Shown in pieces: positions 14,835 through 57,211 of a stretch of 64,000 nucleotides of DNA (position 1 is the first letter of the stretch; each line of letters begins with the position of its first letter). The DNA is taken from sequence record OR352938.1; one strand, 5' to 3'. Under the pieces are notes generated by a model. The model did no database searches. It had not been told where the DNA came from and was given only the letters and a program-made list of their open reading frames with translations. Source of the stretch: Escherichia phage AV108. Both the position numbers and the translations under genes were made by a program.

Positions 14835-15218
14835 TCAGGACATTGCCCGTTTGAATGCGTCCATTATAACAGTGTTATTTGGCTTGTCAACACGTTTTTG
14901 GACTTTATTTTTAATTTTTTTGTTGATGTGGTGTTTACGATAAACAACCTTTTCACGGTTGGCGTAAGCCTCGCGTGCGTCTTTTACCATCAACCATGCC
15001 TTAGCCGCATCTTGTCCGCTGATCCCGCCAATCTTCTTAGCAATATCAACAAAATTAAGACCGTGGTCTTCGCGTAGCATGTAAACCATTAACGCTGTTT
15101 TCTTGTCCATCACTTCGCCCCATTGACGATTAACAGGATAGTGATCAGCACCGGAAACTGGATCATTATAGTGCCAATAAACCGGATAAATGCATTTTCT
15201 GACTTCCACACATGACAT
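14835..15218 (-). CDS. hypothetical protein with possible HTH (127 aa)
   Basis: ORF with ATG start; helix-turn-helix-like stretch and basic C-terminus; own sigma70-like promoter upstream. Confidence 0.5.
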   Translation of the reverse strand: MSCVEVRKCIYPVYWHYNDPVSGADHYPVNRQWGEVMDKKTALMVYMLREDHGLNFVDIAKKIGGISGQDAAKAWLMVKDAREAYANREKVVYRKHHINKKIKNKVQKRVDKPNNTVIMDAFKRAMS

Positions 15219-15434: not shown

Positions 15435-15462
15435 ATTATAGGCATCTAAATCGCTCTGTCAA
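15435..15462 (-). promoter_or_regulatory. sigma70-like early promoter (TTGACA-16-TATAAT)
   Basis: Minus-strand reading gives TTGACA, 16-nt spacer, TATAAT, upstream of the 14835-15218 gene. Confidence 0.55.
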
Positions 15463-16989: not shown

Positions 16990-17715
16990 TTACTTGAGTG
17001 TGTGGAATTGGCTATGTTTAGTCTCTCGCACCTTGACAGACCCATCGCGTTTGATATAATAGATCAGTGACTTGAGGGTGTCGTGTACATACGCGTGCGG
17101 GAAACGCTCTGGATACTTCTTCCAATCTGGAGTATTAACGATCCAGTCGAAAATCCACCACGGGCAGGAGTAGTAACCACGACCGCCACCGATCAAGCAA
17201 ATGGTCGGACGGAAGCCAGTAAGATCGCAAAATGAATCAGTGTCATGTGCTGGGGAACGATGCTCTGCTTCGTTAGAGAAAATGTTGGCTACCGGAGATT
17301 CCACTTTAACTTCCGGTGCTTCTTCAACATCTGACTTAACTTCTTCGACCACTGGTTCAACTGCTGGAGATTCTTCTTTTGTTTCTTCAATGACGATCTC
17401 AGGTTCTTTCATTGCTTCAACCAGAGACGGATCAACTTCGTCGAATACTACTTTATCATCTGCGGTGTCTGCTGCCAGAATAAGATCGTTAATACTGGTT
17501 CCTTCTGCCGGAGTTTCTTCTTCCATTTCGGAAGCCAGTTTAGTTAATTCTGTTTCTACGAACTCGATCATGTTCTCTAGCGAGAGCGTCTTTTTGACCT
17601 TTATATCAAATTGTTTTGCGTAGTCCGCTAATTCTGTTTTAGCGGCTTTCTGTGATTCTTTGTCGTCGGACGCCGCAATAGCGCGGAGTTCTTCGAAATA
17701 TTCTTTATCAAACAT
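16990..17715 (-). CDS. hypothetical acidic protein at the T4 inh position (possible Inh-like)
   Basis: 241 aa with long Glu/Pro/Val-rich acidic linker and Cys/Trp-rich C-terminal domain; function assigned from synteny only. Confidence 0.35.
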   Translation of the reverse strand: MFDKEYFEELRAIAASDDKESQKAAKTELADYAKQFDIKVKKTLSLENMIEFVETELTKLASEMEEETPAEGTSINDLILAADTADDKVVFDEVDPSLVEAMKEPEIVIEETKEESPAVEPVVEEVKSDVEEAPEVKVESPVANIFSNEAEHRSPAHDTDSFCDLTGFRPTICLIGGGRGYYSCPWWIFDWIVNTPDWKKYPERFPHAYVHDTLKSLIYYIKRDGSVKVRETKHSQFHTLK

Positions 17716-29525: not shown

Positions 29526-29563
29526 ATAACAGAAAACGGGGCTAGTATAAAACTAGTCCCCGT
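29526..29563 (-). terminator. rho-independent terminator after alt
   Basis: 11-bp stem ACGGGGCTAGT / ACTAGTCCCCGT; minus-strand RNA followed by a U-rich tract. Confidence 0.7.
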
Positions 29564-29589
29564 TTGAGTCAACCATTATTTCTTAAAAA

Positions 29590-31708: not shown

Positions 31709-31921
31709 TTATAATGCACCATCGAGCAATTGCTCTAAGGTGTATCCTGAATAGTCTTTTTCAATCAGGGTATATTTTCCTACTCGTTTAATCCAGCCAC
31801 GCATTTCAACGTATTCTTCGTAGTTGATGGTGCGAGTTGTTCCATCTTCCAGTAATGCAGTACCGATTTCGTTAATGCGGTCATAAGTTACGTCGGTAAT
31901 GATGATTTCGATGTTAGCCAT
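31709..31921 (-). CDS. hypothetical protein (70 aa)
   Basis: ORF with ATG and GGAG RBS; own promoter upstream. Confidence 0.5.
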   Translation of the reverse strand: MANIEIIITDVTYDRINEIGTALLEDGTTRTINYEEYVEMRGWIKRVGKYTLIEKDYSGYTLEQLLDGAL

Positions 31922-31957
31922 TTGATACTCCTTAGTAGTTCGTTTCGGTATGGGTGT

Positions 31958-31986
31958 ATTATGATATACACCATCTGTTATGTCAA
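31958..31986 (-). promoter_or_regulatory. sigma70-like early promoter (TTGACA-17-CATAAT)
   Basis: Minus-strand -35 TTGACA and -10 CATAAT upstream of 31709-31921. Confidence 0.5.
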
Positions 31987-31992
31987 CAACTT

Positions 31993-32172
31993 TTAGAACA
32001 TTTTTGAAATTAATTCTGCTTTGATTTCGCAGAGAACATCTAAAGATTTCTCGTCACCCGCTTTTGCTGCTTCTGCTTGCATTTTTGAAATGGCTTCAAT
32101 GTCAGTGCAATTATAAGCCGCTTGAACTTTAGCTATTGCGATGATTGCCGATTCGATGGTTAAGTGTTTCAT
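31993..32172 (-). CDS. hypothetical small protein (59 aa)
   Basis: ORF with GGAGAA RBS; below track cutoff. Confidence 0.4.
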   Translation of the reverse strand: MKHLTIESAIIAIAKVQAAYNCTDIEAISKMQAEAAKAGDEKSLDVLCEIKAELISKMF

Positions 32173-32204
32173 GTTTGATTCTCCTTTCGTTTCGGTATGT
32201 GTGC

Positions 32205-32234
32205 ATTATAGGGGATCACCGATCCCCCTGTCAA
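32205..32234 (-). promoter_or_regulatory. sigma70-like early promoter with palindromic spacer (PeSL-type)
   Basis: TTGACA - GGGGGATCGGTGATCCCC - TATAAT on minus strand; spacer is an inverted repeat with two GATC. Confidence 0.65.
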
Positions 32235-32241
32235 CAATTTT

Positions 32242-32760
32242 TTAGTTATTTTTTAATTGCTCATCTTGCAATAGGGCAATCACATGCTGGCGATGTTCTT
32301 CCGATTGAGGCACACCGAAAAAGTTTGTTTTGTAGAAATACTCTAATCGGTCTTCTCGTGTGCTCTCTTCCATCATGATCGCGGGTAGTCCGAGATTTCG
32401 GAAACGTCGCTTTTCTGCTGGCGTAAAATCACTGTAATACAACATAGAATCATCATTACAAGCAATGCTAAACTCATCCTTCATAAAGGAGAATATTGCG
32501 TTTAAACGCTGTTTACCGTCCACGATTTCGATCTCATAGCGAGAGCCATCATCAATCTTAGCCATTGCGATAGCACCAACCGGAAAATCATTAATCAGGT
32601 TTTCGATAAACATACGTTTGTTTTCGGTGTCCCATACTAAAGGACGCTGATAATCTGGGTTCATGTTGATATAGCCATCTTCTAACCATGCATCATAAAC
32701 AGAGATGACAAAGTTTTTAGTATTGGTATAGTAACGGCGTTTAGGCGTTAAACGGTTCAT
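32242..32760 (-). CDS. DUF262 / ParB-like nucleotide-binding domain protein
   Basis: 172 aa from ATG 32760 (AGGAG RBS); PDYQRPLVW and IVDGKQRLNAIF match the DUF262 (GmrS-like) signature. Confidence 0.6.
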   Translation of the reverse strand: MNRLTPKRRYYTNTKNFVISVYDAWLEDGYINMNPDYQRPLVWDTENKRMFIENLINDFPVGAIAMAKIDDGSRYEIEIVDGKQRLNAIFSFMKDEFSIACNDDSMLYYSDFTPAEKRRFRNLGLPAIMMEESTREDRLEYFYKTNFFGVPQSEEHRQHVIALLQDEQLKNN

Positions 32761-32761
32761 G

Positions 32762-33094
32762 TTATAGTCTCCTGAATGGATCATCACGTAAATCAATATC
32801 TTTTAAGAACTCAACCCATGAATGCCGGATATTGTTCTTAATTCTCCAGATAAGCGCAGGGATTGAACGCTCTCCCATCTGGAAGTATGGATCATATGAT
32901 CCGTATGCCCAATATGCTACTACAATTCCACAATCAGCGCAATAGTATTCTATTTCACTTGCTGGCGACCAAAGTCCATCAATATGATCGGTGATCTTGC
33001 TTTCGATGTTATGGCTATGACAATCAGGGCAACGGATGCAATGACCTTGTTTATCGTAATTTGACGTTAGCGAATACTTAAACAATCTCATCAT
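32762..33094 (-). CDS. Cys-rich zinc-ribbon-like protein
   Basis: 110 aa with CIRCPDC...CADCG; start overlaps the MTase-like gene stop as ATGA. Confidence 0.55.
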   Translation of the reverse strand: MMRLFKYSLTSNYDKQGHCIRCPDCHSHNIESKITDHIDGLWSPASEIEYYCADCGIVVAYWAYGSYDPYFQMGERSIPALIWRIKNNIRHSWVEFLKDIDLRDDPFRRL

Positions 33095-33807
33095 AGATCC
33101 TTATTGGCTTCAAATACTGCCTTTGCGAATCCTCGCGGGGTAAGTGACCTTATAGTCTTTGTTTTCGTTCCTTTCCCGCCTAGCTTAGAATGCTGTTTAC
33201 TGTACCCTTTATTAATCTGCAACGGTTTCTTTTCTGGCATTATAAAGCCTTGTCCGGTCCATAAGCAAGTCTTTTTCGGGTACATATCACGGGCGGCGAT
33301 ATACTCAGGAAAAGTAGGATGTTTATCATCTTCCGGCAAATAACCGCCATATTCCCACGGATGGAACATGTAATCAGGCTTACGCCACATACTAGAGATA
33401 ACGCTTACAGGATTCTCTATCATGTAGGGAACTCCTAGCCATTCACCCAAATAAGCGGTTATTTTAGCTGCCCTTACATCATGAACTTGAATCAATGGTC
33501 CTTGTTCTAGTTTCTTTCGTTCAAAGTGCGCAGCGCCACTAACAGCTAAATTGGTGCACGGTGGGAATGCAAAGATAATATCCGGTTTCCCCCATTCAAG
33601 GTCCATTGCTCTTTCCAGCCAATTCAAATCAATCCATGTGTTTACATAGGTAATGTTTGGATGTTCAAATCTGGTATTATACTTTTTGTATGTACCGTGG
33701 TCGGCGTCATCCGCATTAAAGCAGACTACCTTATGACCTGCTTTAGCCCATTCTAGCCCCATTATCCCCGATCCGTCAAAGTTGCAGAATATTAATTTTT
33801 GTTTCAT
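33091..33807 (-). CDS. minimal C5-cytosine methyltransferase-like protein
   Basis: 238 aa; motif I-like FCNFDGSG, motif IV-like FPPC..LAVSGA, motif VI-like ENP, C-terminal RSLTPRG; no room for a normal target-recognition domain. Confidence 0.55.
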   Translation of the reverse strand: MKQKLIFCNFDGSGIMGLEWAKAGHKVVCFNADDADHGTYKKYNTRFEHPNITYVNTWIDLNWLERAMDLEWGKPDIIFAFPPCTNLAVSGAAHFERKKLEQGPLIQVHDVRAAKITAYLGEWLGVPYMIENPVSVISSMWRKPDYMFHPWEYGGYLPEDDKHPTFPEYIAARDMYPKKTCLWTGQGFIMPEKKPLQINKGYSKQHSKLGGKGTKTKTIRSLTPRGFAKAVFEANKDL

Positions 33808-34049
33808 ATACGACCCTTTAACCCAGCACAGATTTTAGTCGGTTCTTTACCGTGCCACATTAAGTAAAGTCCGTTAATGCGACCTTGTTTTGTGTGTGAT
33901 TCTTTTCTGATCTTCTTATAGTGTCGTGCTTCCTCAACTGATTGTTTAGAATACCAATCATAAAGGAAGAGGCACAAAGGCCAACCATTAGCGGCCTTAA
34001 TGCAGTTATTAAGAAATTCCTTATTGCGTTTAATTAATTTTCTTTTCAC
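33804..34049 (-). CDS. hypothetical basic protein (81 aa)
   Basis: GTG start overlapping upstream stop (GTGA); coupled to MTase-like gene (ATGA). Confidence 0.45.
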   Translation of the reverse strand: MKRKLIKRNKEFLNNCIKAANGWPLCLFLYDWYSKQSVEEARHYKKIRKESHTKQGRINGLYLMWHGKEPTKICAGLKGRI

Positions 34050-34297
34050 GCTGCCCCCATTGGTTTGATAGTAACAGAATCTAAAAGACCTTTGTTAGCC
34101 AGTTCTCGGCAAGTTTTCAGATCCGCAACTTCCCAGCCAGCCGCAATCAGGTTATCAATCAGGCTGTTAGCAACTTCTTCGCTCATGAAAGAGCACTGTT
34201 TGCCGATGGTGTAGCGCACACGCTGTAATTTCAGTTTACGGAAGCCTTTAACGTTCAGGTCTTTAGCGATTTTCTTTGCGGTTTCGATGTTAACCAT
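34046..34297 (-). CDS. hypothetical protein (83 aa), first gene of coupled operon
   Basis: ATG with GGAGAA RBS directly downstream of a PeSL-type promoter. Confidence 0.5.
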   Translation of the reverse strand: MVNIETAKKIAKDLNVKGFRKLKLQRVRYTIGKQCSFMSEEVANSLIDNLIAAGWEVADLKTCRELANKGLLDSVTIKPMGAA

Positions 34298-34337
34298 TGT
34301 TTGATTCTCCTAAGTGGTATCTCGTCTTGATGGTTGT

Positions 34338-34366
34338 ATTGTAGGGGAGTTATCCTCCCCTGTCAA
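34338..34366 (-). promoter_or_regulatory. sigma70-like early promoter with palindromic spacer (PeSL-type)
   Basis: TTGACA - GGGGAGGATAACTCCCC - TACAAT on minus strand. Confidence 0.6.
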
Positions 34367-34380
34367 CACTTTTTATAAAA

Positions 34381-34548
34381 TTATTTGTTAATTTCTGGTG
34401 CGTTGCTAGGATAGTAACCTTCTTTAACTCCGAGGTATTTCGCAACCATCCCTACAATCTTCTGTGCTACTACAATGTCAAATTTAAGATAATCTTCGCC
34501 GTGGGTTTCAATGATATATGCTTCACATGCTGCTTTAGTCTCGAACAT
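34381..34548 (-). CDS. hypothetical small protein (55 aa), paralog of 37663-37830
   Basis: Almost identical at protein level to the 37663-37830 ORF (EAYI...HGEDYLKFDIVVAQKI.GMVAKYLGVKEGYYPSNAPEINK). Confidence 0.5.
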   Translation of the reverse strand: MFETKAACEAYIIETHGEDYLKFDIVVAQKIVGMVAKYLGVKEGYYPSNAPEINK

Positions 34549-34581
34549 TTTGATTCTCCTATTTAGTTTCGTTATGTGTGC

Positions 34582-34610
34582 ATTATAGGGGATCTCCCGA
34601 TCCCCGTCAA
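34582..34610 (-). promoter_or_regulatory. sigma70-like early promoter with palindromic spacer (PeSL-type)
   Basis: TTGACG - GGGATCGGGAGATCCCC - TATAAT on minus strand. Confidence 0.6.
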
Positions 34611-34624
34611 CAACTTTTTTAAAA

Positions 34625-34906
34625 TTATTCGTGATTAGTTTCGATGTTGTGTATTTTGCACCAGTTCAGCCAATCGCCAAGATCCTGATAGTTGATGCTT
34701 TTATCTGCTGCCATCGTTTTTGTCTTGATACCCATATGTGCGTTATGGGTAAGCATTTTTACAGTGAACTCAATTTTATCGCCTTTAGCTTTAACATCAA
34801 CCAGTTTGGTCCACTGGCTACCAGCGCCTCGAATGTTCATACCAACGATGTTTCCGATGTATGCTTCTTTGTTTTTCAGGATTTCGGTTGCTTTGATGAA
34901 TTTCAT
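34625..34906 (-). CDS. hypothetical protein (93 aa)
   Basis: ORF with GGAGAA RBS downstream of promoter 34940-34968. Confidence 0.5.
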   Translation of the reverse strand: MKFIKATEILKNKEAYIGNIVGMNIRGAGSQWTKLVDVKAKGDKIEFTVKMLTHNAHMGIKTKTMAADKSINYQDLGDWLNWCKIHNIETNHE

Positions 34907-34939
34907 TTTTGATTCTCCAGTTCGTTTCGGTATGGGTGT

Positions 34940-34968
34940 ATTATGCTATGTTCTTACTTTGGTGTCAA
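34940..34968 (-). promoter_or_regulatory. sigma70-like early promoter (TTGACA-17-CATAAT)
   Basis: Minus-strand -35/-10 pair upstream of 34625-34906. Confidence 0.55.
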
Positions 34969-34976
34969 CAACTTTT

Positions 34977-35246
34977 TTAGATATTTTCAGAAATAAATTT
35001 TAAAACTTGACGTAAATGTTTCTCATCTTTGATAGTCGCCGGAAGTTCTTCTTTTACTTCCTGTGCAAGATAGATATTTCCGTTCCAAGTGAAAGATCCG
35101 TCTTCGTTTACGCGATAGCTGAACATCCACTCGCAATCATTTTCGATTTCATATACACACAGAAGGGTGTAATCGTTAAAGCTATTGATTTCAAGGTCGA
35201 AGCCGTGACGTTTTGCAAAGTTGGTAGTGGTTTTAGTCAGCGCCAT
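34977..35246 (-). CDS. hypothetical protein (89 aa)
   Basis: ORF with GGAGAA RBS downstream of promoter 35287-35315. Confidence 0.5.
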   Translation of the reverse strand: MALTKTTTNFAKRHGFDLEINSFNDYTLLCVYEIENDCEWMFSYRVNEDGSFTWNGNIYLAQEVKEELPATIKDEKHLRQVLKFISENI

Positions 35247-35286
35247 TGTTTGATTCTCCTAAGTGGTATCTCGTTTCGATGGGTGT

Positions 35287-35315
35287 ATTATGCTATAGGC
35301 GTGATCTGGTGTCAA
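35287..35315 (-). promoter_or_regulatory. sigma70-like early promoter (TTGACA-17-CATAAT)
   Basis: Minus-strand -35/-10 pair. Confidence 0.55.
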
Positions 35316-35340
35316 CAACTTTTTTAATTTTTTGGAAATA

Positions 35341-35363
35341 AAAAAGCCGACACTAAGGTCGGC
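35341..35363 (-). terminator. rho-independent terminator (GCCGAC-loop-GTCGGC)
   Basis: Hairpin with minus-strand U5, after the 35372-35680 gene. Confidence 0.6.
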
Positions 35364-35371
35364 TAATAAAA

Positions 35372-35680
35372 TCATTTAGACAAATAATCATTCAGTGCAA
35401 TCCGGTCGGCGTATGCTGGTGTTACGTCAATCGCAATCACTTTAACGCGTGCTTTCTTGCGACCTGGGTTTTCTCGTAACCAGTGCTCATGACCGTGAAC
35501 ATTTTTATACTTTGATGCTTCTTCAAATGTACGGATCGGACCTGGATAATCTGCGTAAAGGATCTCTAGGTCTTCGGTGATGTAAAAATATACATCATAA
35601 TTACTGTTCTCTAGTTTAAGCAGAGACTTTCTGAACATTGGGAGATTTTCGCGGGTAAATTCAAAGATATTATCTTTCAT
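35372..35680 (-). CDS. small early protein, HxHW paralog family member 1
   Basis: 102 aa; C-terminal HGHEHWL...VIAIDV shared with five neighbouring ORFs. Confidence 0.55.
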   Translation of the reverse strand: MKDNIFEFTRENLPMFRKSLLKLENSNYDVYFYITEDLEILYADYPGPIRTFEEASKYKNVHGHEHWLRENPGRKKARVKVIAIDVTPAYADRIALNDYLSK

Positions 35681-35704
35681 AGTATTATCCTCAATAGTTT
35701 GATG

Positions 35705-35728
35705 AAAAGGGGTGGGGCTTAACGCCCC
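35705..35728 (-). terminator. rho-independent terminator (GGGGC-TTAAC-GCCCC)
   Basis: Same hairpin as at 31688; minus-strand U-run follows. Confidence 0.55.
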
Positions 35729-35733
35729 GTATA

Positions 35734-36021
35734 TTAAAACAGTCCTTCCTGTACACCGTAGTAGAGTTCATCGCTGATAATTTCATTAATGCGACGGTGT
35801 GCATATTCCTGATTTGCGAAGTTATCAGCAAGTTCTACTTTAGTTTCGCCGTCATGAGTCCATTTAGTGATAACTTTACCATCTGCAAATTTGAAGTTGA
35901 ACTCTTTAGCTACTGCATCACGTACCAGACGTGCGAACTTGTTGTTACGGATTGCATTATCGGTTTCGTGTGCAGCGTGAGCGAATTTATTAACTTTCAG
36001 AGTGATAGTAATGTATGCCAT
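35734..36021 (-). CDS. hypothetical protein (95 aa)
   Basis: ORF with GGAGAA RBS downstream of promoter 36068-36096. Confidence 0.5.
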   Translation of the reverse strand: MAYITITLKVNKFAHAAHETDNAIRNNKFARLVRDAVAKEFNFKFADGKVITKWTHDGETKVELADNFANQEYAHRRINEIISDELYYGVQEGLF

Positions 36022-36067
36022 AAGTTGATTCTCCTAGTTAGAAAGTGTATCTCGTTTCGATGGGTGT

Positions 36068-36096
36068 ATTATGCTATACACCCGATCTTATGTCAA
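36068..36096 (-). promoter_or_regulatory. sigma70-like early promoter (TTGACA-17-CATAAT)
   Basis: Minus-strand -35/-10 pair. Confidence 0.55.
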
Positions 36097-36102
36097 CACT
36101 TT

Positions 36103-36381
36103 TTATAAAATAATTTTTTGATATTTTTCTATGATGTTTGTGTAGGTCACGTCAACCGCTAGCACCGTTGCTTCGAATCCACCGTTTAACCAATGGCTAT
36201 GATCATGATCGTGAAAGAAACCTAGACCAGTACGAAGACCTTCTTTATATTCGGAGCGTACATTTAGATCATCATCGATAAACAGATAAAACCATGAATT
36301 TTTACTAGGATTGATGATACAACCTTTCAGATTAGGGAGAATATCACGACTAAGAATAAACTTATCACCTACTTTGAGCAT
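36103..36381 (-). CDS. small early protein, HxHW paralog family member 2
   Basis: 92 aa from ATG 36381 (GAGG RBS); HDHDHSHWL...VLAVDV. Confidence 0.5.
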   Translation of the reverse strand: MLKVGDKFILSRDILPNLKGCIINPSKNSWFYLFIDDDLNVRSEYKEGLRTGLGFFHDHDHSHWLNGGFEATVLAVDVTYTNIIEKYQKIIL

Positions 36382-36404
36382 AATATTTTCCTCACTTATA
36401 AAGT

Positions 36405-36704
36405 TTAACTGTTGTTTTTCTCGTAATGCTGAATGCGTGCTTGATCTGCTTCCGCTGGTGATAGATTCCATGCAACCACTACAACTTCTGACGCATCGTC
36501 ATCCGTTTTTGATACCCAATGATTGTGATTCATACAGTTATTTGCTATCGAGTGAGCAAATGATTTCATCACTGGAGACGTATAATCATAGTAACGGATT
36601 TTCAGATTTTCATCAACGTACAAATAGATCGTATAAGGTTTATATTCAGTAACCAGTAACAGACAGTTACGCAATTCTGGGAAAATCTTTTTAGTTAATT
36701 TCAT
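36405..36704 (-). CDS. small early protein, HxHW paralog family member 3
   Basis: 99 aa from ATG 36704 (GAGGA RBS); NHNHWV...VVVVAW. Confidence 0.5.
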   Translation of the reverse strand: MKLTKKIFPELRNCLLLVTEYKPYTIYLYVDENLKIRYYDYTSPVMKSFAHSIANNCMNHNHWVSKTDDDASEVVVVAWNLSPAEADQARIQHYEKNNS

Positions 36705-36705
36705 T

Positions 36706-36924
36706 TTATAATCCTCGGTCGCGGCTATAGTACACGGTACGCCATACAATTTCATGTTTCGTGTCGCTCCAGCACACGATCTCATTTACTCTTAAATCTT
36801 TGTTATCAACAAAAGATGAACATTGTGACGCTTCTTTCATCATTTTATCTGCTGTTTTCTCATCAAATACAGCACAGATTTCTTTATACACTCGATAATC
36901 TTTGAATTGACTCTGGATACCCAT
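36706..36924 (-). CDS. hypothetical small protein, paralog of 36884-37147
   Basis: Shares FK.Y..Y.......F.EKMM..AS.C.SF pattern with the adjacent ORF; start codon uncertain. Confidence 0.4.
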   Translation of the reverse strand: MGIQSQFKDYRVYKEICAVFDEKTADKMMKEASQCSSFVDNKDLRVNEIVCWSDTKHEIVWRTVYYSRDRGL

Positions 36925-37147
36925 AATTAACACCATTCCAACCAATTGTTTTTGAGAAAACGTTTATCCACTGTTGAGTGTAGCATGTTTCTTTCCATGA
37001 TACAATACGAGTAGAATAATGGTTTTTGTTTCCAGAAAAGGACGGGCATTTTGATGCATCTTCCATCATCTTTTCGGCGAACTCTGGTGCGTATACTCGC
37101 AGGATCTGTTGATATGCTTTGTATTCTTTAAATTTGCTCATAATCAT
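36884..37147 (-). CDS. hypothetical small protein, paralog of 36706-36924
   Basis: 87 aa; overlaps neighbours at both ends; boundaries uncertain. Confidence 0.4.
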   Translation of the reverse strand: MIMSKFKEYKAYQQILRVYAPEFAEKMMEDASKCPSFSGNKNHYSTRIVSWKETCYTQQWINVFSKTIGWNGVNYGYPESIQRLSSV

Positions 37148-37406
37148 TCACTACCTTATCAGCTTCTTTTGTTGTTTTTACATCAACTGCGATAACTCGT
37201 AAAGGTTCGTCATGGTTCCACCAGTGGTCATGAATATCAGCTTGTGATTTATCACCAAAGGAATCACGAATATCATTTTTACATTTATAGCTAATGTGAC
37301 CTTCATAGTCAACATAAAGGTAATTATCGAAAATCGGCGTTTTTAAGATCATACCGAAAAATCTTTCTTTGTGTGTCTTATCCAGCGTTGCAGTAATTCG
37401 CATCAT
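37128..37406 (-). CDS. small early protein, HxHW paralog family member 4
   Basis: 92 aa; IHDHWW...VIAVDV. Confidence 0.5.
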   Translation of the reverse strand: MMRITATLDKTHKERFFGMILKTPIFDNYLYVDYEGHISYKCKNDIRDSFGDKSQADIHDHWWNHDEPLRVIAVDVKTTKEADKVVNDYEQI

Positions 37407-37418
37407 AATATATTCCTC

Positions 37419-37598
37419 TTAGAAAGGGATGGTCATTTCTTGAGCTTGTACATTCTCGTTAGGATTAAACTTCATCCAACCGATATTGTCTACCAGCATA
37501 TGCACATTTTTATCATATCCTACGTGGGTAGTCAATACTGTATGTGCTTTACCTTCAATGATGAGTTCCATGTACTTCTGAACTTCGATAGCTTTCAT
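37419..37598 (-). CDS. hypothetical small protein (59 aa)
   Basis: ORF with GGAGAA RBS downstream of promoter 37631-37659. Confidence 0.4.
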   Translation of the reverse strand: MKAIEVQKYMELIIEGKAHTVLTTHVGYDKNVHMLVDNIGWMKFNPNENVQAQEMTIPF

Positions 37599-37630
37599 TT
37601 TGATTCTCCGTTTGTTGTCTTGATGGGAGT

Positions 37631-37659
37631 ATCTTACTACTCCCTTTAATCATTGTCAA
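37631..37659 (-). promoter_or_regulatory. sigma70-like early promoter with palindromic spacer (weaker -10)
   Basis: TTGACA then GGGAGTAGTAAGATACTCCC palindrome with TAAGAT as -10. Confidence 0.4.
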
Positions 37660-37662
37660 CTA

Positions 37663-37830
37663 TTATTTGTTAATTTCTGGTGCGTTGCTCGGATAGTAAC
37701 CTTCTTTAACACCAAGATATTTTGCAACCATTCCGGTGATCTTCTGTGCTACTACGATATCGAATTTCAGGTAGTCTTCACCGTGGTTTGCTACAATGTA
37801 CGCTTCGCATTCTGCTTTAGTCTGGAACAT
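37663..37830 (-). CDS. hypothetical small protein (55 aa), paralog of 34381-34548
   Basis: ATG at 37830; about 85 percent nucleotide identity to the 34381-34548 copy by eye. Confidence 0.5.
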   Translation of the reverse strand: MFQTKAECEAYIVANHGEDYLKFDIVVAQKITGMVAKYLGVKEGYYPSNAPEINK

Positions 37831-37864
37831 TTTTGATTCTCCTATATCTCGTTGGTATGTGTGC

Positions 37865-37893
37865 ATTATAGGGGATCGGTGATCCCCTGTCAA
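37865..37893 (-). promoter_or_regulatory. sigma70-like early promoter with palindromic spacer (PeSL-type)
   Basis: TTGACA - GGGGATCACCGATCCCC - TATAAT on minus strand. Confidence 0.65.
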
Positions 37894-37898
37894 CAACT

Positions 37899-38192
37899 TT
37901 ATAATGCTTTATATGCGTATTTCATAAATTTGTCTGCCACTTCATTGGCATGTTCAGATTCTACGCCTGATTCGAGAACAATAGCTAGGTCGGTTTCGTC
38001 ATTCCCGCCGTACCAATGATTTGATGTTCGATTTTTTTCAATTGGAAATTGGTCACTTTTATCTGTGCGACAAAATACATCTAAATGCTCGTCGATGTAA
38101 AAGATCCAATCTTCATAAAGAATAACGGTATTAGCAAGATTTTTATTGCCTTCAACGAAAGGTTCGGCTACAAACAAATTAGTATGTTCCAT
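37899..38192 (-). CDS. small early protein, HxHW paralog family member 5 (divergent)
   Basis: 97 aa from ATG 38192 (GAGG RBS); SNHWYGG...AIVLE. Confidence 0.45.
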   Translation of the reverse strand: MEHTNLFVAEPFVEGNKNLANTVILYEDWIFYIDEHLDVFCRTDKSDQFPIEKNRTSNHWYGGNDETDLAIVLESGVESEHANEVADKFMKYAYKAL

Positions 38193-38208
38193 AGTATTTT
38201 CCTCAAAA

Positions 38209-38400
38209 TTATACAGCTTCGTAAACTTCCCAATGTCCAACACCAGCACGCTTAACGAAAAGGTTTTCTTTGATGTTATTCATAAACGTCTGGATGGATT
38301 TAATGCGATTTGAAGGTTTCCAGTCTTCGTTGGCATTGCGTCGATACATCATAACATTACCAGTTCGCTTATATTCAGCAACCATTTTAAGACCACACAT
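38209..38400 (-). CDS. hypothetical protein (63 aa)
   Basis: ORF in compact minus-strand array. Confidence 0.35.
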   Translation of the reverse strand: MCGLKMVAEYKRTGNVMMYRRNANEDWKPSNRIKSIQTFMNNIKENLFVKRAGVGHWEVYEAV

Positions 38401-38457
38401 AATATTATCCTCAATTTGTGGGAGAGTATTACCCCTCCCAATGATTGTTATGTTATA

Positions 38458-38778
38458 TCACACAAAATGGCGTGTCAATGCTTCTTTTGCGGTTCCGCTA
38501 AGACTTTCGATCTCTCCTGGCATAACATCAACCGCCAGAACTTCTACAACATCCTCGGACCCTAACCAGTGAGTATGACCTTTGTAGAACTTAATAACCA
38601 GACTACCTTCCTCGTCCCATTTAACGCTATCGCTAGCCCACCACACATCACCGTCGATAAAGTTGATGTAAAGCACACTACGCCACATTGAATTAATTAC
38701 TTTCAATACTGCGCCTTTCATCTCTTCCACGGTATGGTCTTCCATTTTGAAGACCTCACCTACCTGAACTTTTGCCAT
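38458..38778 (-). CDS. small early protein, HxHW paralog family member 6
   Basis: 106 aa; GHTHWL...VLAVDV. Confidence 0.5.
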   Translation of the reverse strand: MAKVQVGEVFKMEDHTVEEMKGAVLKVINSMWRSVLYINFIDGDVWWASDSVKWDEEGSLVIKFYKGHTHWLGSEDVVEVLAVDVMPGEIESLSGTAKEALTRHFV

Positions 38779-38795
38779 TTAGTCACCTCTCTTTA

Positions 38796-38975
38796 TTACA
38801 TAACAATCACGCCAGCCGTTGAAAGTTGATGTTTCAACTGAGCATTTTCTGCTACCGTCAAATCAATGATTTCTTGTGACGCTGCAATCATATAGCCATT
38901 GGTGATATTGTTTTGCATCAGTTCAATGGTTTCTTCGTTGTAGCGGATTTTAGCGATGATTTCGTTGAAGTTCAT
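38796..38975 (-). CDS. hypothetical small protein (59 aa)
   Basis: ORF with GGAGAA RBS downstream of promoter 39010-39038. Confidence 0.4.
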   Translation of the reverse strand: MNFNEIIAKIRYNEETIELMQNNITNGYMIAASQEIIDLTVAENAQLKHQLSTAGVIVM

Positions 38976-39009
38976 AATTGATTCTCCTAGTTCGTTTCGG
39001 TATGTGTGT

Positions 39010-39038
39010 AGTATAGGGGATCACCGATCCCCTGTCAA
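39010..39038 (-). promoter_or_regulatory. sigma70-like early promoter with palindromic spacer (PeSL-type)
   Basis: TTGACA - GGGGATCGGTGATCCCC - TATACT on minus strand. Confidence 0.6.
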
Positions 39039-39050
39039 CAACTTTTTGAA

Positions 39051-39527
39051 TTATTTTTCTTGATGCTCGCGATCGTACTTTTCGAAATAAAATTCTACTG
39101 GCTGGTCGTGGATTGACAGCAAGCCAAAGCGTTTAGCCGCTCGCAATCCCATATTGCGCTGAATGTACTTCTGGAAGTTCTCGCGTATACACTTACGCCA
39201 GGATTCTAAGCCCATGCAGCTTTTATAAAGATTGCATTGCACACATGCCGGATTCATGTTATCAAGTATATCATGCTCCGGTTTATGCATTCCTACAACC
39301 TTATACTTCCACGATCCATCATCATTACGGGCAATTCGTCCATTTTCATCATAGACAACCTTTGAGCGTCGTAATACTGGTTTGATATGGTCTGCGTGCC
39401 AGCGATCCCCTAGTTCCTCGCCACAATAGGCACAACGTCCACCGTATTTCATTTTCAGGATCTGACGTTGCTCTTTCTTTGACAATTTTTTAGGTTTAGG
39501 GGCTTTCGCCCCTTCATTATCACACAT
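39051..39527 (-). CDS. HNH endonuclease
   Basis: CAYCG...HADHIKP...N...CVQCN fits the HNH Cys/His signature; start overlaps ligase stop by 8 nt; true start may be an internal Met. Confidence 0.65.
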   Translation of the reverse strand: MCDNEGAKAPKPKKLSKKEQRQILKMKYGGRCAYCGEELGDRWHADHIKPVLRRSKVVYDENGRIARNDDGSWKYKVVGMHKPEHDILDNMNPACVQCNLYKSCMGLESWRKCIRENFQKYIQRNMGLRAAKRFGLLSIHDQPVEFYFEKYDREHQEK

Positions 39528-46434: not shown

Positions 46435-46833
46435 TTAACTTTCCAGAATATCGCGAGCTTCGTTACGCTCCTTGATGATTTTCAGGACAAATTCCAGTTT
46501 TTCTTTGTTCAGCGTTCCATTTTCCATTGCTTCTTTGACGGTAAACACTCCGCCACCTTGCCCGTATACAGTGACAGTGATTTCACCTAACATCGTGGTA
46601 TGAAAACCGCCAATTTTCGGTGATTCGAAAGAAACAATTACCTCGCGAACAGTATTACCGTCGTTGATTTCTGAGAGGGTAATGTCGTTTTTGTAGGCGG
46701 TTGCTTTAACCATACGGATCAGCATAGTCTGATCTGGGGAGATGGTCATTTTGTCCATTGCATGTTGCAATGCAGCGTAACCGAAAACTTTAACGAAGTC
46801 CAGAACATCTTTGCGAGTTTGAAATTTAATCAT
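46435..46833 (-). CDS. hypothetical protein (132 aa)
   Basis: ORF with ATG; no recognised motif. Confidence 0.5.
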   Translation of the reverse strand: MIKFQTRKDVLDFVKVFGYAALQHAMDKMTISPDQTMLIRMVKATAYKNDITLSEINDGNTVREVIVSFESPKIGGFHTTMLGEITVTVYGQGGGVFTVKEAMENGTLNKEKLEFVLKIIKERNEARDILES

Positions 46834-46903
46834 CTTGATACTCCTTAGTTGTTTTGGTATGGGAGTATCTTACTAAGTATCTTACTACTCCCCAACTGCT
46901 TTT

Positions 46904-47053
46904 TTATGCAACCGCAAACATCAACATTTGAACATTCTTGGCTGTCTGGCTTTCAAAGTTCTGACATTCTTTGATAATGTCCTCTACTTTCTCGCCGGAG
47001 ATCTCCGCGTAAGTTTCGATTGCCATTTTCAGTACCGCGTCAAAGTTGTTCAT
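46904..47053 (-). CDS. hypothetical small protein (49 aa)
   Basis: ORF with GGAGAA RBS downstream of promoter 47085-47114. Confidence 0.35.
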   Translation of the reverse strand: MNNFDAVLKMAIETYAEISGEKVEDIIKECQNFESQTAKNVQMLMFAVA

Positions 47054-47084
47054 TTGATTCTCCTTTGTTTCGTTTCGATGGGGG

Positions 47085-47114
47085 TATATTAATACCCCCG
47101 TTATTCAGTGTCAA
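47085..47114 (-). promoter_or_regulatory. sigma70-like early promoter with palindrome over the -10
   Basis: TTGACA then 18 nt then TAATAT; palindrome GGGGGTATATTAATACCCCC spans the -10. Confidence 0.45.
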
Positions 47115-47121
47115 CTACTTT

Positions 47122-47340
47122 TTACTTGTTGTATTCATTCCACCATTGGGTGAGCTTATCAATTATTTTTGTGTTTCTATCCAACTTATCCCACCGTTTT
47201 CGAGGGTTTATCAACCGTAATAGGTAAGGTGTACTTGTTAAGTGAACTCGGTCAATATAGTGATTGATGTACTGTTTTTCGATTCTAAGTTTCATCTTTT
47301 TACGATGAAAATATGCAATGACTTGTTCTTCTGTTTCCAT
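47122..47340 (-). CDS. hypothetical protein (72 aa)
   Basis: ATG at 47340 with GGAGG RBS (track start 47394 lies inside the promoter). Confidence 0.45.
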   Translation of the reverse strand: METEEQVIAYFHRKKMKLRIEKQYINHYIDRVHLTSTPYLLRLINPRKRWDKLDRNTKIIDKLTQWWNEYNK

Positions 47341-47362
47341 ATGTTCCTCCGTTTCGATGTGT

Positions 47363-47391
47363 ATTATGCTATGGCAAGATCCGATTGTCAA
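47363..47391 (-). promoter_or_regulatory. sigma70-like early promoter (TTGACA-17-CATAAT)
   Basis: Minus-strand -35/-10 pair. Confidence 0.55.
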
Positions 47392-47438
47392 CACCCAATA
47401 ACAAAAAAGTCGCCACTATGGGCGACTTTGAACAAACA

Positions 47439-49823: not shown

Positions 49824-49964
49824 TCAGGAAGAATCGCCCATTCTACAACCGTATTCATCCTCGACGTAGTAGCAAGTCCCATCATGTCGAGCATCATATT
49901 CATCACCAACAACAAAGCTATCAGCTAGCTCAAAATCTACAGCAACACATTTTAATTTGGTCAT
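49824..49964 (-). CDS. hypothetical small protein (46 aa)
   Basis: ATG 49964 with GAGG RBS, downstream of promoter 49996-50024. Confidence 0.35.
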   Translation of the reverse strand: MTKLKCVAVDFELADSFVVGDEYDARHDGTCYYVEDEYGCRMGDSS

Positions 49965-49995
49965 AATAAAATCCTCACTTGTTTTTGATGGTTGT

Positions 49996-50024
49996 ATTAT
50001 AGCGGGGATTTCTCCCCGCGTCAA
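49996..50024 (-). promoter_or_regulatory. sigma70-like early promoter with palindromic spacer (PeSL-type)
   Basis: TTGACG - CGGGGAGAAATCCCCGC - TATAAT on minus strand; spacer is the same hairpin module as after genes 18 and 19. Confidence 0.6.
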
Positions 50025-50032
50025 CACTTATT

Positions 50033-52276
50033 TTACAGCTTGCAAGATGAGCACTCGCTAGCGTCTTCCGTACCATCAGCACCGTCGCGAACGTTCGCAT
50101 AATACAGGGTTTTCAGACCGTAATATTGAGCAAACAACATATCATCTAACACATCAGCAATATCGACTTTACCAGTCTTATAAGTGCTTGGATCGTATGA
50201 TGTATTGGAACTAATCGCCTGATCCACAAACTTCTGCATGATCGCTGCCAGTGTCAGATAAGGCTTGTTACCTTTCTTGATCAGTGTCCAAAGCAGGTCA
50301 ATAACATCAGCATTATTCTCTACGTTCGGAATAACCTGATTAAATTGCCCTTCTTTCGATCCTTTAACCGATACAATACCGCGAGGCGGTTCAATACCGT
50401 TTGTGCTGTTAGATACCTGAGAAGACGACTCACAAGGCATCAGAGCCGAAAGCGTACTGTTACGAATGCCATATTTTTTCAGGTCTTCGCGCAGTTCTTC
50501 CCAATCCATCTCATATACCGGATCAACCAGTTCATCTACTGTCTTTTTGTACCAGTCGATAGGCAGTTCACCGCGTCCATAACGTGTTTCGTGCATCAGT
50601 TCGCAAGCACCCTTCTCTTTAGCCAGTTGCACACTAGCCTTAATCAGAGCATATTGCAAGCGTTCAAACGTTTTATGCGTAAACTCGTTAGCGTCTTCAT
50701 ATGTGAAGAAATTATCCGCGAGATACGATGCAAAGTTAGTCACCCCAACACCCAGAGAGCGACGTTTTTTGGATGTCAGAGCTTGCTCTACAGGATAATC
50801 CTGGTAATCTAACAGGTTGTCAAGTGCACGCACCATAACCATAGCAATGCGTTCTACTTCTTCCATATTTTCGATATCAAAGTTTCCTAAAACATATGCT
50901 GCCAAAGTACATAGGCTGATCTCTGAATCATCACGACCCATCGGTTTTGTAGGCAGAGCAATTTCACAACACAGGTTGGATTGTTTAATCGGTGCTACAT
51001 TACGAATAAACGCCCCGTGATTGTTCATGTTGTCTGTGAACGTTGGGTAGATTCGACCAGTGTTAAAACGTTCAATTGCCACCGCTAAAAACAGGTCTTC
51101 GGCTTTAACACGAGTTTTACGAACACTCGGATCTTTTTCCAGTTTTTCGTAAAGCTGGCGGAAACCTTCCTCATCTCGGAAGTATAGATCCCACAACAAG
51201 CCACCTGCAACATCTGGACTAAACAGAGTAATGTAATCCCGTTTAAGGAATCGCTCTACCATCAGGTTATTAATCTGTACGCCGTAATCAAGATGACGAA
51301 TGCGGTTATCTTCCACCCCCTTATTGTTCTTTAACACAATCAGACTTTCAAACTCTAAATGCCACATTGGGTAATAGAGAGTCGCCGCCCCGCCACGAAT
51401 ACCGCCTTGTGAGCATGACTTAACGGCAGTCTGAAAATGTTTCCAGAATGGGATAACGCCAGTATGACGAACTTCACCATGCCCGATCTTAGATCCTTCC
51501 GCGCGAATCATGCCAGCGTTGATACCGATACCAGCACGCTTGCTAATATACTTGATGATTGCATTTGCTGTTTCGTTGATGCCCTGCAATGAGTCATCAC
51601 TTTCAATCACCACACACGAACTAAATTGGCGTGTTGGGGTACGCACACCTGCCATAATCGGAGTAGGCAGAGAGATTTGCTTATTCGCAACAGCATTATA
51701 AAAATCAATCACATGTTCAAGTCTATTTTCGGTCTCTTCTTGATGCAAGCACATACCGATCAGCATATACGCAAATTGCGGTGTTTCGATGATTTTCTTA
51801 GTGCTGCGATCCTGAACAAGATATTTCTCTTTTAACTGCATCGCACCAGCATAGGTCATTTTAAAATCAAGTTTATGGTCGATGAATTTCTCCAGATATT
51901 CCACTTCTTCACGGGAATACTTTTGCAGAATTTCGCGATCATATTTTCCGATTGCAATATTACGCTCAATATGGCTATAAAAATCAATAGGTTGGAATTG
52001 ACCGTATACTGATTTACGAAGCGCGAACATTGCAAGGTTACTTGCTACATATTGATAATCGGGTGTTTCTACCGTGATGTTATCTGCGGCGACCTTAATC
52101 AATACTTTCTGGATATCATTGGTAGACATACCTTCTGTCAGAAGTGGTTCAACCATATCAAACAATTCATATGGATCAACGTTATGACCTTCGGCTGCCG
52201 CTTCCAGAATTTTCATTACTTTTTCTTTTTCAAACGGAACAGTCAGACCGGAAGACTTAACAACATTTTTAATCAT
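50033..52276 (-). CDS. nrdA: ribonucleotide reductase large subunit
   Basis: 747 aa (T4 NrdA about 754); N-terminal ATP-cone-like region; neighbour of nrdB. Confidence 0.88.
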   Translation of the reverse strand: MIKNVVKSSGLTVPFEKEKVMKILEAAAEGHNVDPYELFDMVEPLLTEGMSTNDIQKVLIKVAADNITVETPDYQYVASNLAMFALRKSVYGQFQPIDFYSHIERNIAIGKYDREILQKYSREEVEYLEKFIDHKLDFKMTYAGAMQLKEKYLVQDRSTKKIIETPQFAYMLIGMCLHQEETENRLEHVIDFYNAVANKQISLPTPIMAGVRTPTRQFSSCVVIESDDSLQGINETANAIIKYISKRAGIGINAGMIRAEGSKIGHGEVRHTGVIPFWKHFQTAVKSCSQGGIRGGAATLYYPMWHLEFESLIVLKNNKGVEDNRIRHLDYGVQINNLMVERFLKRDYITLFSPDVAGGLLWDLYFRDEEGFRQLYEKLEKDPSVRKTRVKAEDLFLAVAIERFNTGRIYPTFTDNMNNHGAFIRNVAPIKQSNLCCEIALPTKPMGRDDSEISLCTLAAYVLGNFDIENMEEVERIAMVMVRALDNLLDYQDYPVEQALTSKKRRSLGVGVTNFASYLADNFFTYEDANEFTHKTFERLQYALIKASVQLAKEKGACELMHETRYGRGELPIDWYKKTVDELVDPVYEMDWEELREDLKKYGIRNSTLSALMPCESSSQVSNSTNGIEPPRGIVSVKGSKEGQFNQVIPNVENNADVIDLLWTLIKKGNKPYLTLAAIMQKFVDQAISSNTSYDPSTYKTGKVDIADVLDDMLFAQYYGLKTLYYANVRDGADGTEDASECSSCKL

Positions 52277-54863: not shown

Positions 54864-54891
54864 ATTATACACTATTGCGTTACGCTGTCAA
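54864..54891 (-). promoter_or_regulatory. sigma70-like early promoter (TTGACA-16-TATAAT)
   Basis: Minus-strand -35/-10 pair overlapping the 3' end of the upstream ORF. Confidence 0.5.
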
Positions 54892-56088: not shown

Positions 56089-56116
56089 ATTATACATTAC
56101 CACATCAGCATGTCAA
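56089..56116 (-). promoter_or_regulatory. sigma70-like early promoter (TTGACA-16-TATAAT)
   Basis: Minus-strand -35/-10 pair upstream of the zinc-ribbon repeat gene. Confidence 0.5.
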
Positions 56117-57183: not shown

Positions 57184-57211
57184 ATTATACAGATTTAAGT
57201 TTACTTGTCAA
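57184..57211 (-). promoter_or_regulatory. sigma70-like promoter upstream of gene 32
   Basis: TTGACA-16-TATAAT on minus strand within the 3' end of gene 59. Confidence 0.5.

Follow-up and report, generated by a model that had tools for sequence, protein, structure and literature searches.

The 64,000 nucleotides of Escherichia phage AV108 analyzed here (sequence record OR352938.1; hereafter the 64-kb window) include, between the alt and DNA ligase genes, a hyperplastic early-gene block equivalent to ORF185-212 of phages RB49 and Phi1 (ORF, open reading frame). From 31800 to 39200 the minus strand carries a run of ~25 short ORFs, and ten of the gaps between them hold a promoter. We conclude that these repeated elements, which combine a promoter with a palindrome, are very probably the promoter-early stem-loops (PeSLs) of an RB49-like (Krischvirus) T4-type coliphage. 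PeSLs were defined in Phi1 and RB49, in the same alt-to-ligase block (Arbiol et al. 2010, Genome Biol Evol 2:140; PMC2839356); what was observed is genuine, but it has been reported before for this phage group and locus and hence is not new. Identity to ~60 Krischvirus genomes is 93-98% across the region; RB49, Phi1, JSE, and GEC-3S are among them, FL37 is the best match (98%), and the GenBank record of GEC-3S has promoters with -35 and -10 signals annotated at the same ten positions. The location is that of known PeSLs, in a hyperplastic T4-type region and mostly upstream of ORFans: six of ten ORFs scanned lack a Pfam match at an E value of ≤0.01, a seventh has a sub-threshold match only, and the matches above threshold among the ten are GmrSD_N and HNH only, together with a weak zinc ribbon.

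A PeSL comprises a strong sigma70-like early promoter preceded by AT-rich sequence, a G(n)/C(n) stem-loop, and a Shine-Dalgarno (SD) sequence with a start codon (PMC2839356). The stem-loop has five possible positions, most commonly in the spacer or over the -10, and otherwise over the -35, in the upstream AT-rich region, or downstream of the -10; there are ~50 PeSLs per genome, concentrated in hyperplastic regions (PMC2839356). Promoter and terminator assays with lacZ covered PeSL206/205, 193/192, and 211/210: the PeSL206/205 promoter gave ~13,000 Miller units as a lacZ fusion, and the PeSL211/210 hairpin was terminator-like and as strong as rrnB T1 (PMC2839356). We note that the latter hairpin, GGGGAT-cacgt-ATCCCC, belongs to the spacer class. 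Mini-circles carrying ORF192 and ORF210 with chimeric PeSLs were also reported (PMC2839356), and RB49 early-transcript 5' ends were mapped (Desplats et al. 2002) and, according to PMC1524935, agree with the predicted early-promoter consensus. The preliminary description of the AV108 sequence, which proposed PeSL-like early promoter/stem-loop cassettes acting as recombination points for small ORFs, is therefore borne out at the very locus in which PeSLs were defined.

Exact matches to TTGACA-N16-18-TATAAT number nine in the window, compared with 0.07 expected from shuffled sequences. Between 31958 and 39038, a relaxed scan and a separate scan of our own identified ten minus-strand promoters, in agreement with the initial count of at least ten in these 7 kb. 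The cassettes are named by the coordinate of the -35 start (for example, P35315), and all are on the minus strand unless stated; paired coordinates below give -35 start/-10 end.

38973..39050, minus strand: PeSL upstream of the ORF209 homologue (P39038, 39038/39010), with -35 at 39038-39033, -10 at 39015-39010, then GGAGAATCAA and ATG; spacer hairpin AGGGGATC-ggt-GATCCCCT at 39033-39015 (nhmmer E value 4.5e-20; fold z score -2.35).
37828..37898, minus strand: orthologue of PeSL206/205 (P37893, 37893/37865), 12/12 promoter; hairpin AGGGGATC-acc-GATCCCCT at 37888-37870 (z -3.56).
37596..37662, minus strand: PeSL P37659 (37659/37631); hairpin GGGAGTA-gtaaga-TACTCCC at 37644-37625 enclosing the -10 TAAGAT (E value 5e-11; z -3.04).
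36019..36102, minus strand: PeSL P36096 (36096/36068); hairpin GGGTGTAT-agcata-ATACACCC at 36083-36062 enclosing the -10 CATAAT (z -3.91); the longest leader, with 33 nt from -10 to SD.
35244..35371, minus strand: PeSL P35315 (35315/35287), a promoter without a hairpin and with no fold in its core; canonical terminator AGCCGAC...GTCGGCT plus T-run at 35364-35345.
34904..34976, minus strand: P34968 (34968/34940), a promoter/SD cassette of the same family without a stem-loop (E value 2e-15; z -0.08).
34546..34624, minus strand: orthologue of PeSL193/191, Phi1 type (P34610, 34610/34582), -35 TTGACG; hairpin GGGGATC-ggga-GATCCCC at 34605-34588, overlapping the final base of the -35.
34295..34380, minus strand: PeSL P34366 (34366/34338); spacer hairpin AGGGGAG-gataa-CTCCCCT at 34361-34343, without GATC (-19.4 kcal/mol; z -4.04).
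32170..32241, minus strand: orthologue of PeSL187/186 (P32234, 32234/32205), 12/12 promoter with an 18-nt spacer; hairpin GGGGATC-ggt-GATCCCC at 32227-32211.
31919..31992, minus strand: orthologue of PeSL186/185 (P31986, 31986/31958); hairpin GGTGTAT-atcata-ATACACC at 31972-31953 across the -10, the weakest hairpin fold (z -1.55); SD GGAGTATCAA.

The promoters are near consensus, with two matching at 12/12 positions, seven at 11/12, and one (TAAGAT) at 10/12; the -10 hexamers are TATAAT (three), CATAAT (four), TATACT, TACAAT, and TAAGAT (one each), one -35 is TTGACG, and the spacers are 17 nt, with one of 18 nt. As in known PeSLs, an A/T-rich region precedes the promoter, with a stop codon on the 5' side and an SD and start codon on the 3' side. 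The stop codon of the upstream ORF lies 3-14 nt before the -35 (56 nt at P35315), and the cassette is the entire intergenic gap of 64-83 nt (125 nt at P35315). The SD block GGAGAATCAA is exact in nine of the ten cassettes, with GGAGTATCAA in the other, and the SD start is 10-13 nt from the ATG. An SD and ATG at a fixed distance from each promoter had been proposed; the block and the ATG are present, but the distance from the -10 to GGAG is 20-33 nt and so is not fixed. Conservation in the alignment extends beyond the hexamers to an A-rich AAAAAGTTG stretch before the -35, the C/A-rich leader ACACMCATMSGAAACGA, the GGAG[A/T]ATCAA block, and the ATG. An nhmmer profile of the copies returns 11 matches at E values of <1e-10, namely the ten promoters and one further copy at 47129-47053.

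Hairpins differ among the cassettes in both position and sequence. A perfect 7-8 bp G/C-rich hairpin occupies the spacer in five of the ten (39038, 37893, 34610, 34366, and 32234) and also at 50024, and a 7-8 bp hairpin encloses the -10 in three (37659, 36096, and 31986) and also at 47114. Of the remaining two, P35315 has a separate upstream hairpin followed by a T-run and P34968 has none; with this last exception, the stem-loop characteristic of PeSLs is present throughout. The preliminary description recognized that several spacers are perfect inverted repeats, and the three sequences that it quoted are correct; the assignment of the palindrome to the spacer holds for five of the ten, but the position varies, with three lying across the -10. 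When compared with shuffled sequences, each hairpin has a chance probability of p≤0.012 (p≤0.01 for the three quoted palindromes). RNA folds from the upstream stop codon have energies of -9.6 to -19.4 kcal/mol and z scores of -1.6 to -4.9, and the two hairpin-free cores have z scores of ~0. No Rfam covariance model matched at the gathering threshold on either strand of 29000-58000. Separately, at 34328-34383 and 49986-50035 (minus strand) we observe a predicted RNA outer helix, in which GUGUUG (overlapping the -35) pairs with CAAUAC or UAAUAC (overlapping the -10), giving structures of -19 kcal/mol that span the whole promoter.

Conservation was evaluated in the window and ten relatives, a sample of 11 genomes, 120 cassette copies, and 60 distinct cores. 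In 92 of 119 scored copies the core contains a perfect stem of 6 bp or more. At fixed register in the spacer class there are two-sided TA<->GC changes, and GGGGATC/GATCCCC changes to GCGGGGA/TCCCCGC; in the -10 class, also at fixed register, GGGTGTAT/ATACACCC changes to GGGGATAT/ATATCCCC, the compensated stem of P36096 orthologues, and GGGAGTA/TACTCCC to GGGGGTA/TACCCCC. The stem register shifts by 1-3 nt within each class. Stem pairs comprise 365 Watson-Crick pairs and three imperfect ones (two G.T and one A.C), too few to tell RNA from DNA selection. The two-sided changes support selection on structure, and a sequence-specific dimeric binder is unlikely because stem sequence and position vary; of the two explanations initially offered for a palindrome whose sequence varies while its symmetry is kept, it is thus structure that the compensatory changes favor. 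From the ATG back to 22 nt before the -35, cassette P37893 matches RB49 PeSL206/205 exactly apart from its loop (37870-37888), which is ACC in the window and in Sf20 and the reverse complement, GGT, in RB49, JSE, and GoldenSnicker. Overall, the two orientations are similarly frequent, with 10 versus 11 copies in one register. This pattern points to a putative loop inversion or very short conversion; term searches of PMC2839356 for loop flips gave no matches.

The synteny comparison with related phages suggested as a check reveals both PeSL-bounded indels and chimeric PeSLs. We compared the window with ten relatives over 11.6 kb using overlap-tolerant chaining, because PeSL repeats make the high-scoring segment pairs overlap. 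There are 12 indel sites, of which seven are within PeSLs, although these cover 12.6% of the 11.6 kb (binomial p of ~2e-4 versus random placement, by our own arithmetic). Compared to its relatives, the window lacks ORF192, ORF195/196, and ORF210/211, with each gap exactly at a PeSL. Cassettes of the ORF192 type are inserted at P34610 in RB49, FL38, and JSE, a ~406-nt cassette is inserted at P35315 in five relatives, and P39038 is an 'empty-site' PeSL at which relatives have ORF210 and/or ORF211. Deletions or replacements in MIZ4, UPWr_E1, Sf20, and FL04 extend between two PeSLs. Chimeric cassettes form the joints, as in Sf20 and MIZ4 at the PeSL186/185 site; in Sf20, which lacks ORF186, the upstream half of PeSL187/186 is fused within the leader to PeSL186/185. 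The ORF209 orthologue has four different upstream hairpins among the 11 genomes.

These observations can be accommodated in a simple model. Each cassette begins with an A-rich stretch and continues with a near-consensus sigma70 promoter, a C/A-rich leader of 20-33 nt, and GGAGAATCAA with the start codon; the promoter would be served by unmodified host RNA polymerase right after infection. A G/C-rich hairpin of 6-9 bp is nested in the spacer or around the -10, where the promoter leaves the sequence free, an arrangement that would keep the gap short. The hairpins follow the upstream stop codon by 9-30 nt, and because a hairpin is upstream of its own cassette's start site, it would enter RNA only when transcription reads through from the upstream cassette, at the 3' end of that transcript. 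In such read-through RNA we infer that its most likely role is that of a terminator or attenuator (insulator); reporter data have been published for one hairpin of the spacer class. With ~85-100 nt common to the copies, phage homologous recombination could cross over between cassettes, and such a crossover would delete, insert, or swap ORF modules, each with its own promoter. Such exchange of modules is seen here in the genome comparison, and published mini-circles demonstrate it (PMC2839356).

Several observations weigh against parts of this model. No U-run follows the spacer- and -10-class hairpins, which are succeeded by UAUAAU or AUCGAAAC, and a terminator scan did not call them; canonical intrinsic termination is thus not evident at these hairpins from their sequences. 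A canonical intrinsic terminator is found only at 35364-35345 and 47429-47406, the other hairpins being followed by TATAAT/TATACT or ATCGAAAC, and the support for termination at the spacer and -10 classes is one hairpin in a reporter assay, not 3'-end mapping (PMC2839356). P34968 is kept in 10/10 loci having the cassette, even though it has no hairpin. The ORF indels between relatives and chimeric joints typical of PeSLs are found, with five sites at tightly packed PeSL-free gene junctions, two of which have 16-17 nt overlaps. Because these PeSL-free junctions also have indels, PeSLs are not the sole route for them; PeSL junctions are used in 6/10 cases and PeSL-free junctions in ~7/15, with no clear excess, and the sole per-junction measure favoring PeSLs is the number of distinct events, ~11 at PeSL junctions versus five at PeSL-free ones. 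Finally, the activity and mini-circle evidence is from RB49/Phi1 orthologues, and this isolate is known from sequence comparison. Two PeSL-free junctions are worth describing separately: homologues of ORF189.1 and ORF207 (33806-34033 and 38206-38398) are precisely deleted in some relatives, and the 16-17 nt flank overlaps suggest that ribosome-binding regions may recombine through short direct repeats. At 32757 and 38776 there are insertions of 172 nt and 265 nt.

A different role for the hairpin is possible, though unlikely, in which it acts in RNA not as a terminator but as a 3'-end stabilizer or processing site, and GGAGAATCAAA is a RegB/S1 cut site that shuts off early mRNAs; this is compatible with the PeSL identity, and the mechanism alone differs. 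Most of the hairpins do lack a U-tract, and GGAG[A/T]ATCAA precedes every PeSL-first gene, compared with 0/14 promoter-distal genes. GGAGAATCAAA matches 10/11 positions of the RegB/S1 consensus GGAGRAYARAA (PMC1702504), and RB49 RegB cleaves in vivo (PMC3014915). There are eight occurrences of GGAGAATCAAA, only at PeSL-first genes, and a relaxed pattern has nine, eight of them at PeSLs, versus 0.57 expected. However, the mismatch is a C at position 8, where the consensus strongly prefers A, the cut sites in PeSL leaders are predicted from sequence, and the strength of the PeSL211/210 hairpin in lacZ fusions fits termination. A term search of PMC2839356 found no mention of RegB. Among promoter-distal genes from 31919 to 39050, we note GAGGA[A/T]AATA-type sites at several and neither type at others.

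It is improbable that the palindrome works instead as a DNA hairpin or cruciform recognized by a putative dedicated phage protein, with integron-like excision and insertion of cassettes. The authors of PMC2839356 raised this possibility, one RB49 mini-circle crossover mapped to the loop (PMC2839356), and the GGT/ACC loop occurs in both orientations at PeSL206/205 with both sides identical. Nonetheless, the joints are scattered (A-rich region, leader, and 74-96 nt overlaps), as homology-driven exchange predicts; apart from the usual T4-like recombination machinery, no integrase or recombinase was identified in RB49/Phi1 (PMC2839356); one cassette is hairpin-free, and hairpin sequence and position vary; and indels are seen at PeSL-free junctions as well. 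We consider equally doubtful a combination of both ideas, in which a putative phage factor acts on the extruded DNA hairpin in an integron-like manner and GGAGAATCAAA is also a RegB/S1 cut that times the shut-off of every cassette gene; if true, a hairpin-handling factor would have left the GGT/ACC loop flips at orthologous sites as its footprint.

We regard as very improbable a role of the spacer palindrome in tuning the promoter, either as an operator for a dimeric regulator or as a Dam switch acting through paired GATCs. In favor, there is a perfect dyad between the -35 and -10 in 5/10 promoters, and GATC is present in 7/16 promoter cores (2.6 sites expected), often at the same offset after the -35. 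Against this, there are at least four spacer-class and at least four -10-class stem types with registers shifting by 1-3 nt, two promoter cores do not fold, and three hairpin types have no GATC. The paired GATCs pointed out initially are present, but the pairing is automatic from stem symmetry, since GATC is self-complementary and a site in one arm forces the other; the enrichment is weak, with p of ~0.016 if the cores are independent, and they are paralogues. The window as a whole has 354 GATC sites versus 345 expected from a Markov model (ratio of 1.03). With the enrichment modest and confounded by paralogy, and GATC at its genome-wide expectation, we rejected the GATC pattern as evidence for a Dam methylation switch. 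Convergence, with independent promoters and SDs drifting to consensus near unrelated terminators and no shared cassette, is extremely improbable: although the -35, -10, and SD are obviously under functional selection and the distal promoters at 54864, 56089, and 57184 have little else in common, it is contradicted by common positions with no known constraint (AAAAAGTTG upstream and ACACMCATMSGAAACGA in the leader), by swapped cassette halves at orthologous genes, and by chimeric deletion joints.

Related elements lie elsewhere in the window. Additional sites had been listed at 47085 (placed here at 47086), 47363, 49996, 54864, 56089, and 57184, and all of these exist; the weaker nhmmer relatives are at 50037, 54908, 56129, and 47395, together with a degraded copy at 46906-46834.

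47051..47121, minus strand: an eleventh close family member, outside 31958-39038; hairpin GGGGGTAT-taat-ATACCCCC at 47099-47080 across the -10 TAATAT (E value 3e-15).
46831..46906, minus strand: degraded PeSL, leaving TTGGGG-17 nt-TAAGAT (nhmmer E value 6e-7).
49962..50032, minus strand: a more distant PeSL (-35 start 50024) with TTGACG, spacer hairpin GCGGGGA-gaaa-TCCCCGC at 50019-50002, and SD GAGGAT (nhmmer E value 5e-5; fold z score -4.91).
47338..47438, minus strand: early promoter TTGACA-17-CATAAT with a canonical terminator upstream at 47429-47406 (nhmmer E value 4e-3).
54864..54891, minus strand: 12/12 early promoter with a 16-nt spacer and without a stem-loop; similar promoters are at 56089-56116 and 57184-57211.

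The three sites at 54864, 56089, and 57184 have a 16-nt spacer, no palindrome, and a different SD. For the degraded PeSL, comparison with the intact Sf20 orthologue shows that 12 nt (ACAGCATATCAC), including the ACA of the -35, have been lost and that 12 nt (TAGTAAGATACT) are tandemly duplicated, with length kept and TTGGGG 17 nt from the second TAAGAT. A degenerate copy at 46861-46905 with a duplicated 9-mer had been described; the copy is real, but the repeat unit is the 12-nt TAGTAAGATACT, which contains that 9-mer. Four more 12/12 sigma70 promoters, which were outside the preliminary description, are at 14863-14890, 15435-15462, and 59547-59574 (minus strand) and at 17033-17060 (plus strand); they are outside the close PeSL family, with a best nhmmer E value of 0.24, at 14907. 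Just downstream of alt, at 29544-29572 (minus strand), TTGACT-17-TATACT is overlapped by an imperfect hairpin, ACGGGGACTAG...CTAGCCCCGT plus TTTT (-18.9 kcal/mol), which looks like a combined terminator and promoter ahead of the ADP-ribosyltransferase gene.

The small genes of the block include several paralogues. Two 55-amino-acid ORFs (34381-34548 and 37663-37830, minus strand; ORF191 and ORF205 homologues) are 89% identical, each behind its own PeSL. Five ORFs of ~90-106 amino acids (35372-35680, 36103-36381, 36405-36704, 37128-37406, and 38458-38778, minus strand) form a family with pairwise E values of 1e-13 to 6e-5 and a near-C-terminal motif, H-x-H-W ... V-[IL]-A-[VI]-D-V; no Pfam match was obtained for the two members scanned. 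Another paralogous pair (40% identity) is formed by ORFs 36706-36918 and 36884-37141. The 238-amino-acid product of 33091-33807 (minus strand) is annotated in relatives as DNA methyltransferase, Dcm, or C-5 methylase and has no Pfam match at an E value of ≤0.01, and its neighbor (32242-32760, minus strand; 172 amino acids) contains only an N-terminal GmrSD/DUF262 domain (E value 6e-20). In the complete 64-kb sequence, GGCC is much rarer than a Markov model predicts (22 observed versus 66 expected; ratio of 0.33), and AGCT (0.67), GTAC (0.70), and GCGC (0.76) fall below expectation as well, a pattern resembling restriction-site avoidance.

The closest known systems are the RB49/Phi1 PeSLs themselves (PMC2839356), in the same genus and at the same alt-to-DNA ligase locus, ORF185-212. 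They share the TTGACA-N17-TATAAT promoter, the A-rich upstream region, the G(n)-loop-C(n) in the spacer or across the -10, the SD and start on the 3' side, and the link to ORFan indels; P37893 corresponds to PeSL206/205 and P34610 to Phi1 PeSL193/191. The differences are at the isolate level only, in the missing ORF192, ORF195/196, and ORF210/211, in some flipped loops, and in the degraded copy at 46831-46906. The PeSLs and PmSLs of T4/PST and KVP40/nt-1 (Comeau et al. 2014; PMC4122927) are likewise promoter, stem-loop, and SD cassettes in hyperplastic regions, with degraded 'half' copies near indels, but their promoters differ (TTTACW...TAYWAT, T4-type, or TTGYVH...TAWWAT), and their stems (AGNA/TCNT or A3-4G3/C3T3-4) form hairpins just upstream of the promoter, not inside it (PMC4122927). 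Lambdoid morons (Hendrix et al. 2000, as discussed in PMC2839356) are likewise single accessory genes with their own promoter and terminator; by the same account, they have no conserved flanking repeats and are thought to enter illegitimately, whereas here the regulatory cassette supplies the homology. Integron attC cassettes resemble PeSLs as small promoter-dependent ORF cassettes with imperfect border palindromes and circular excised intermediates, but PMC2839356 identified no RB49/Phi1 integrase, the crossovers are spread over the cassette, and the palindrome here is inside the promoter. The RegB/S1 sites of T4-type early mRNAs (PMC1702504) likewise have GGAG in the early-gene SD followed by A-rich sequence, and GGAGAATCAAA, with its C at position 8, is a candidate site by sequence.

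The RegB-like SD block and the loop flip are small additions to the 2010 PeSL description, as judged by term search of PMC2839356. This isolate is a further natural case in which gene content departs from that of RB49, Phi1, and JSE exactly at PeSLs, and its 'empty' ORF192 and ORF210 sites are as the mini-circle model predicts, a confirmation and not a discovery. PeSLs are among the few concrete mechanisms proposed for the shuffling of accessory genes in large lytic phages without breaking transcription units.

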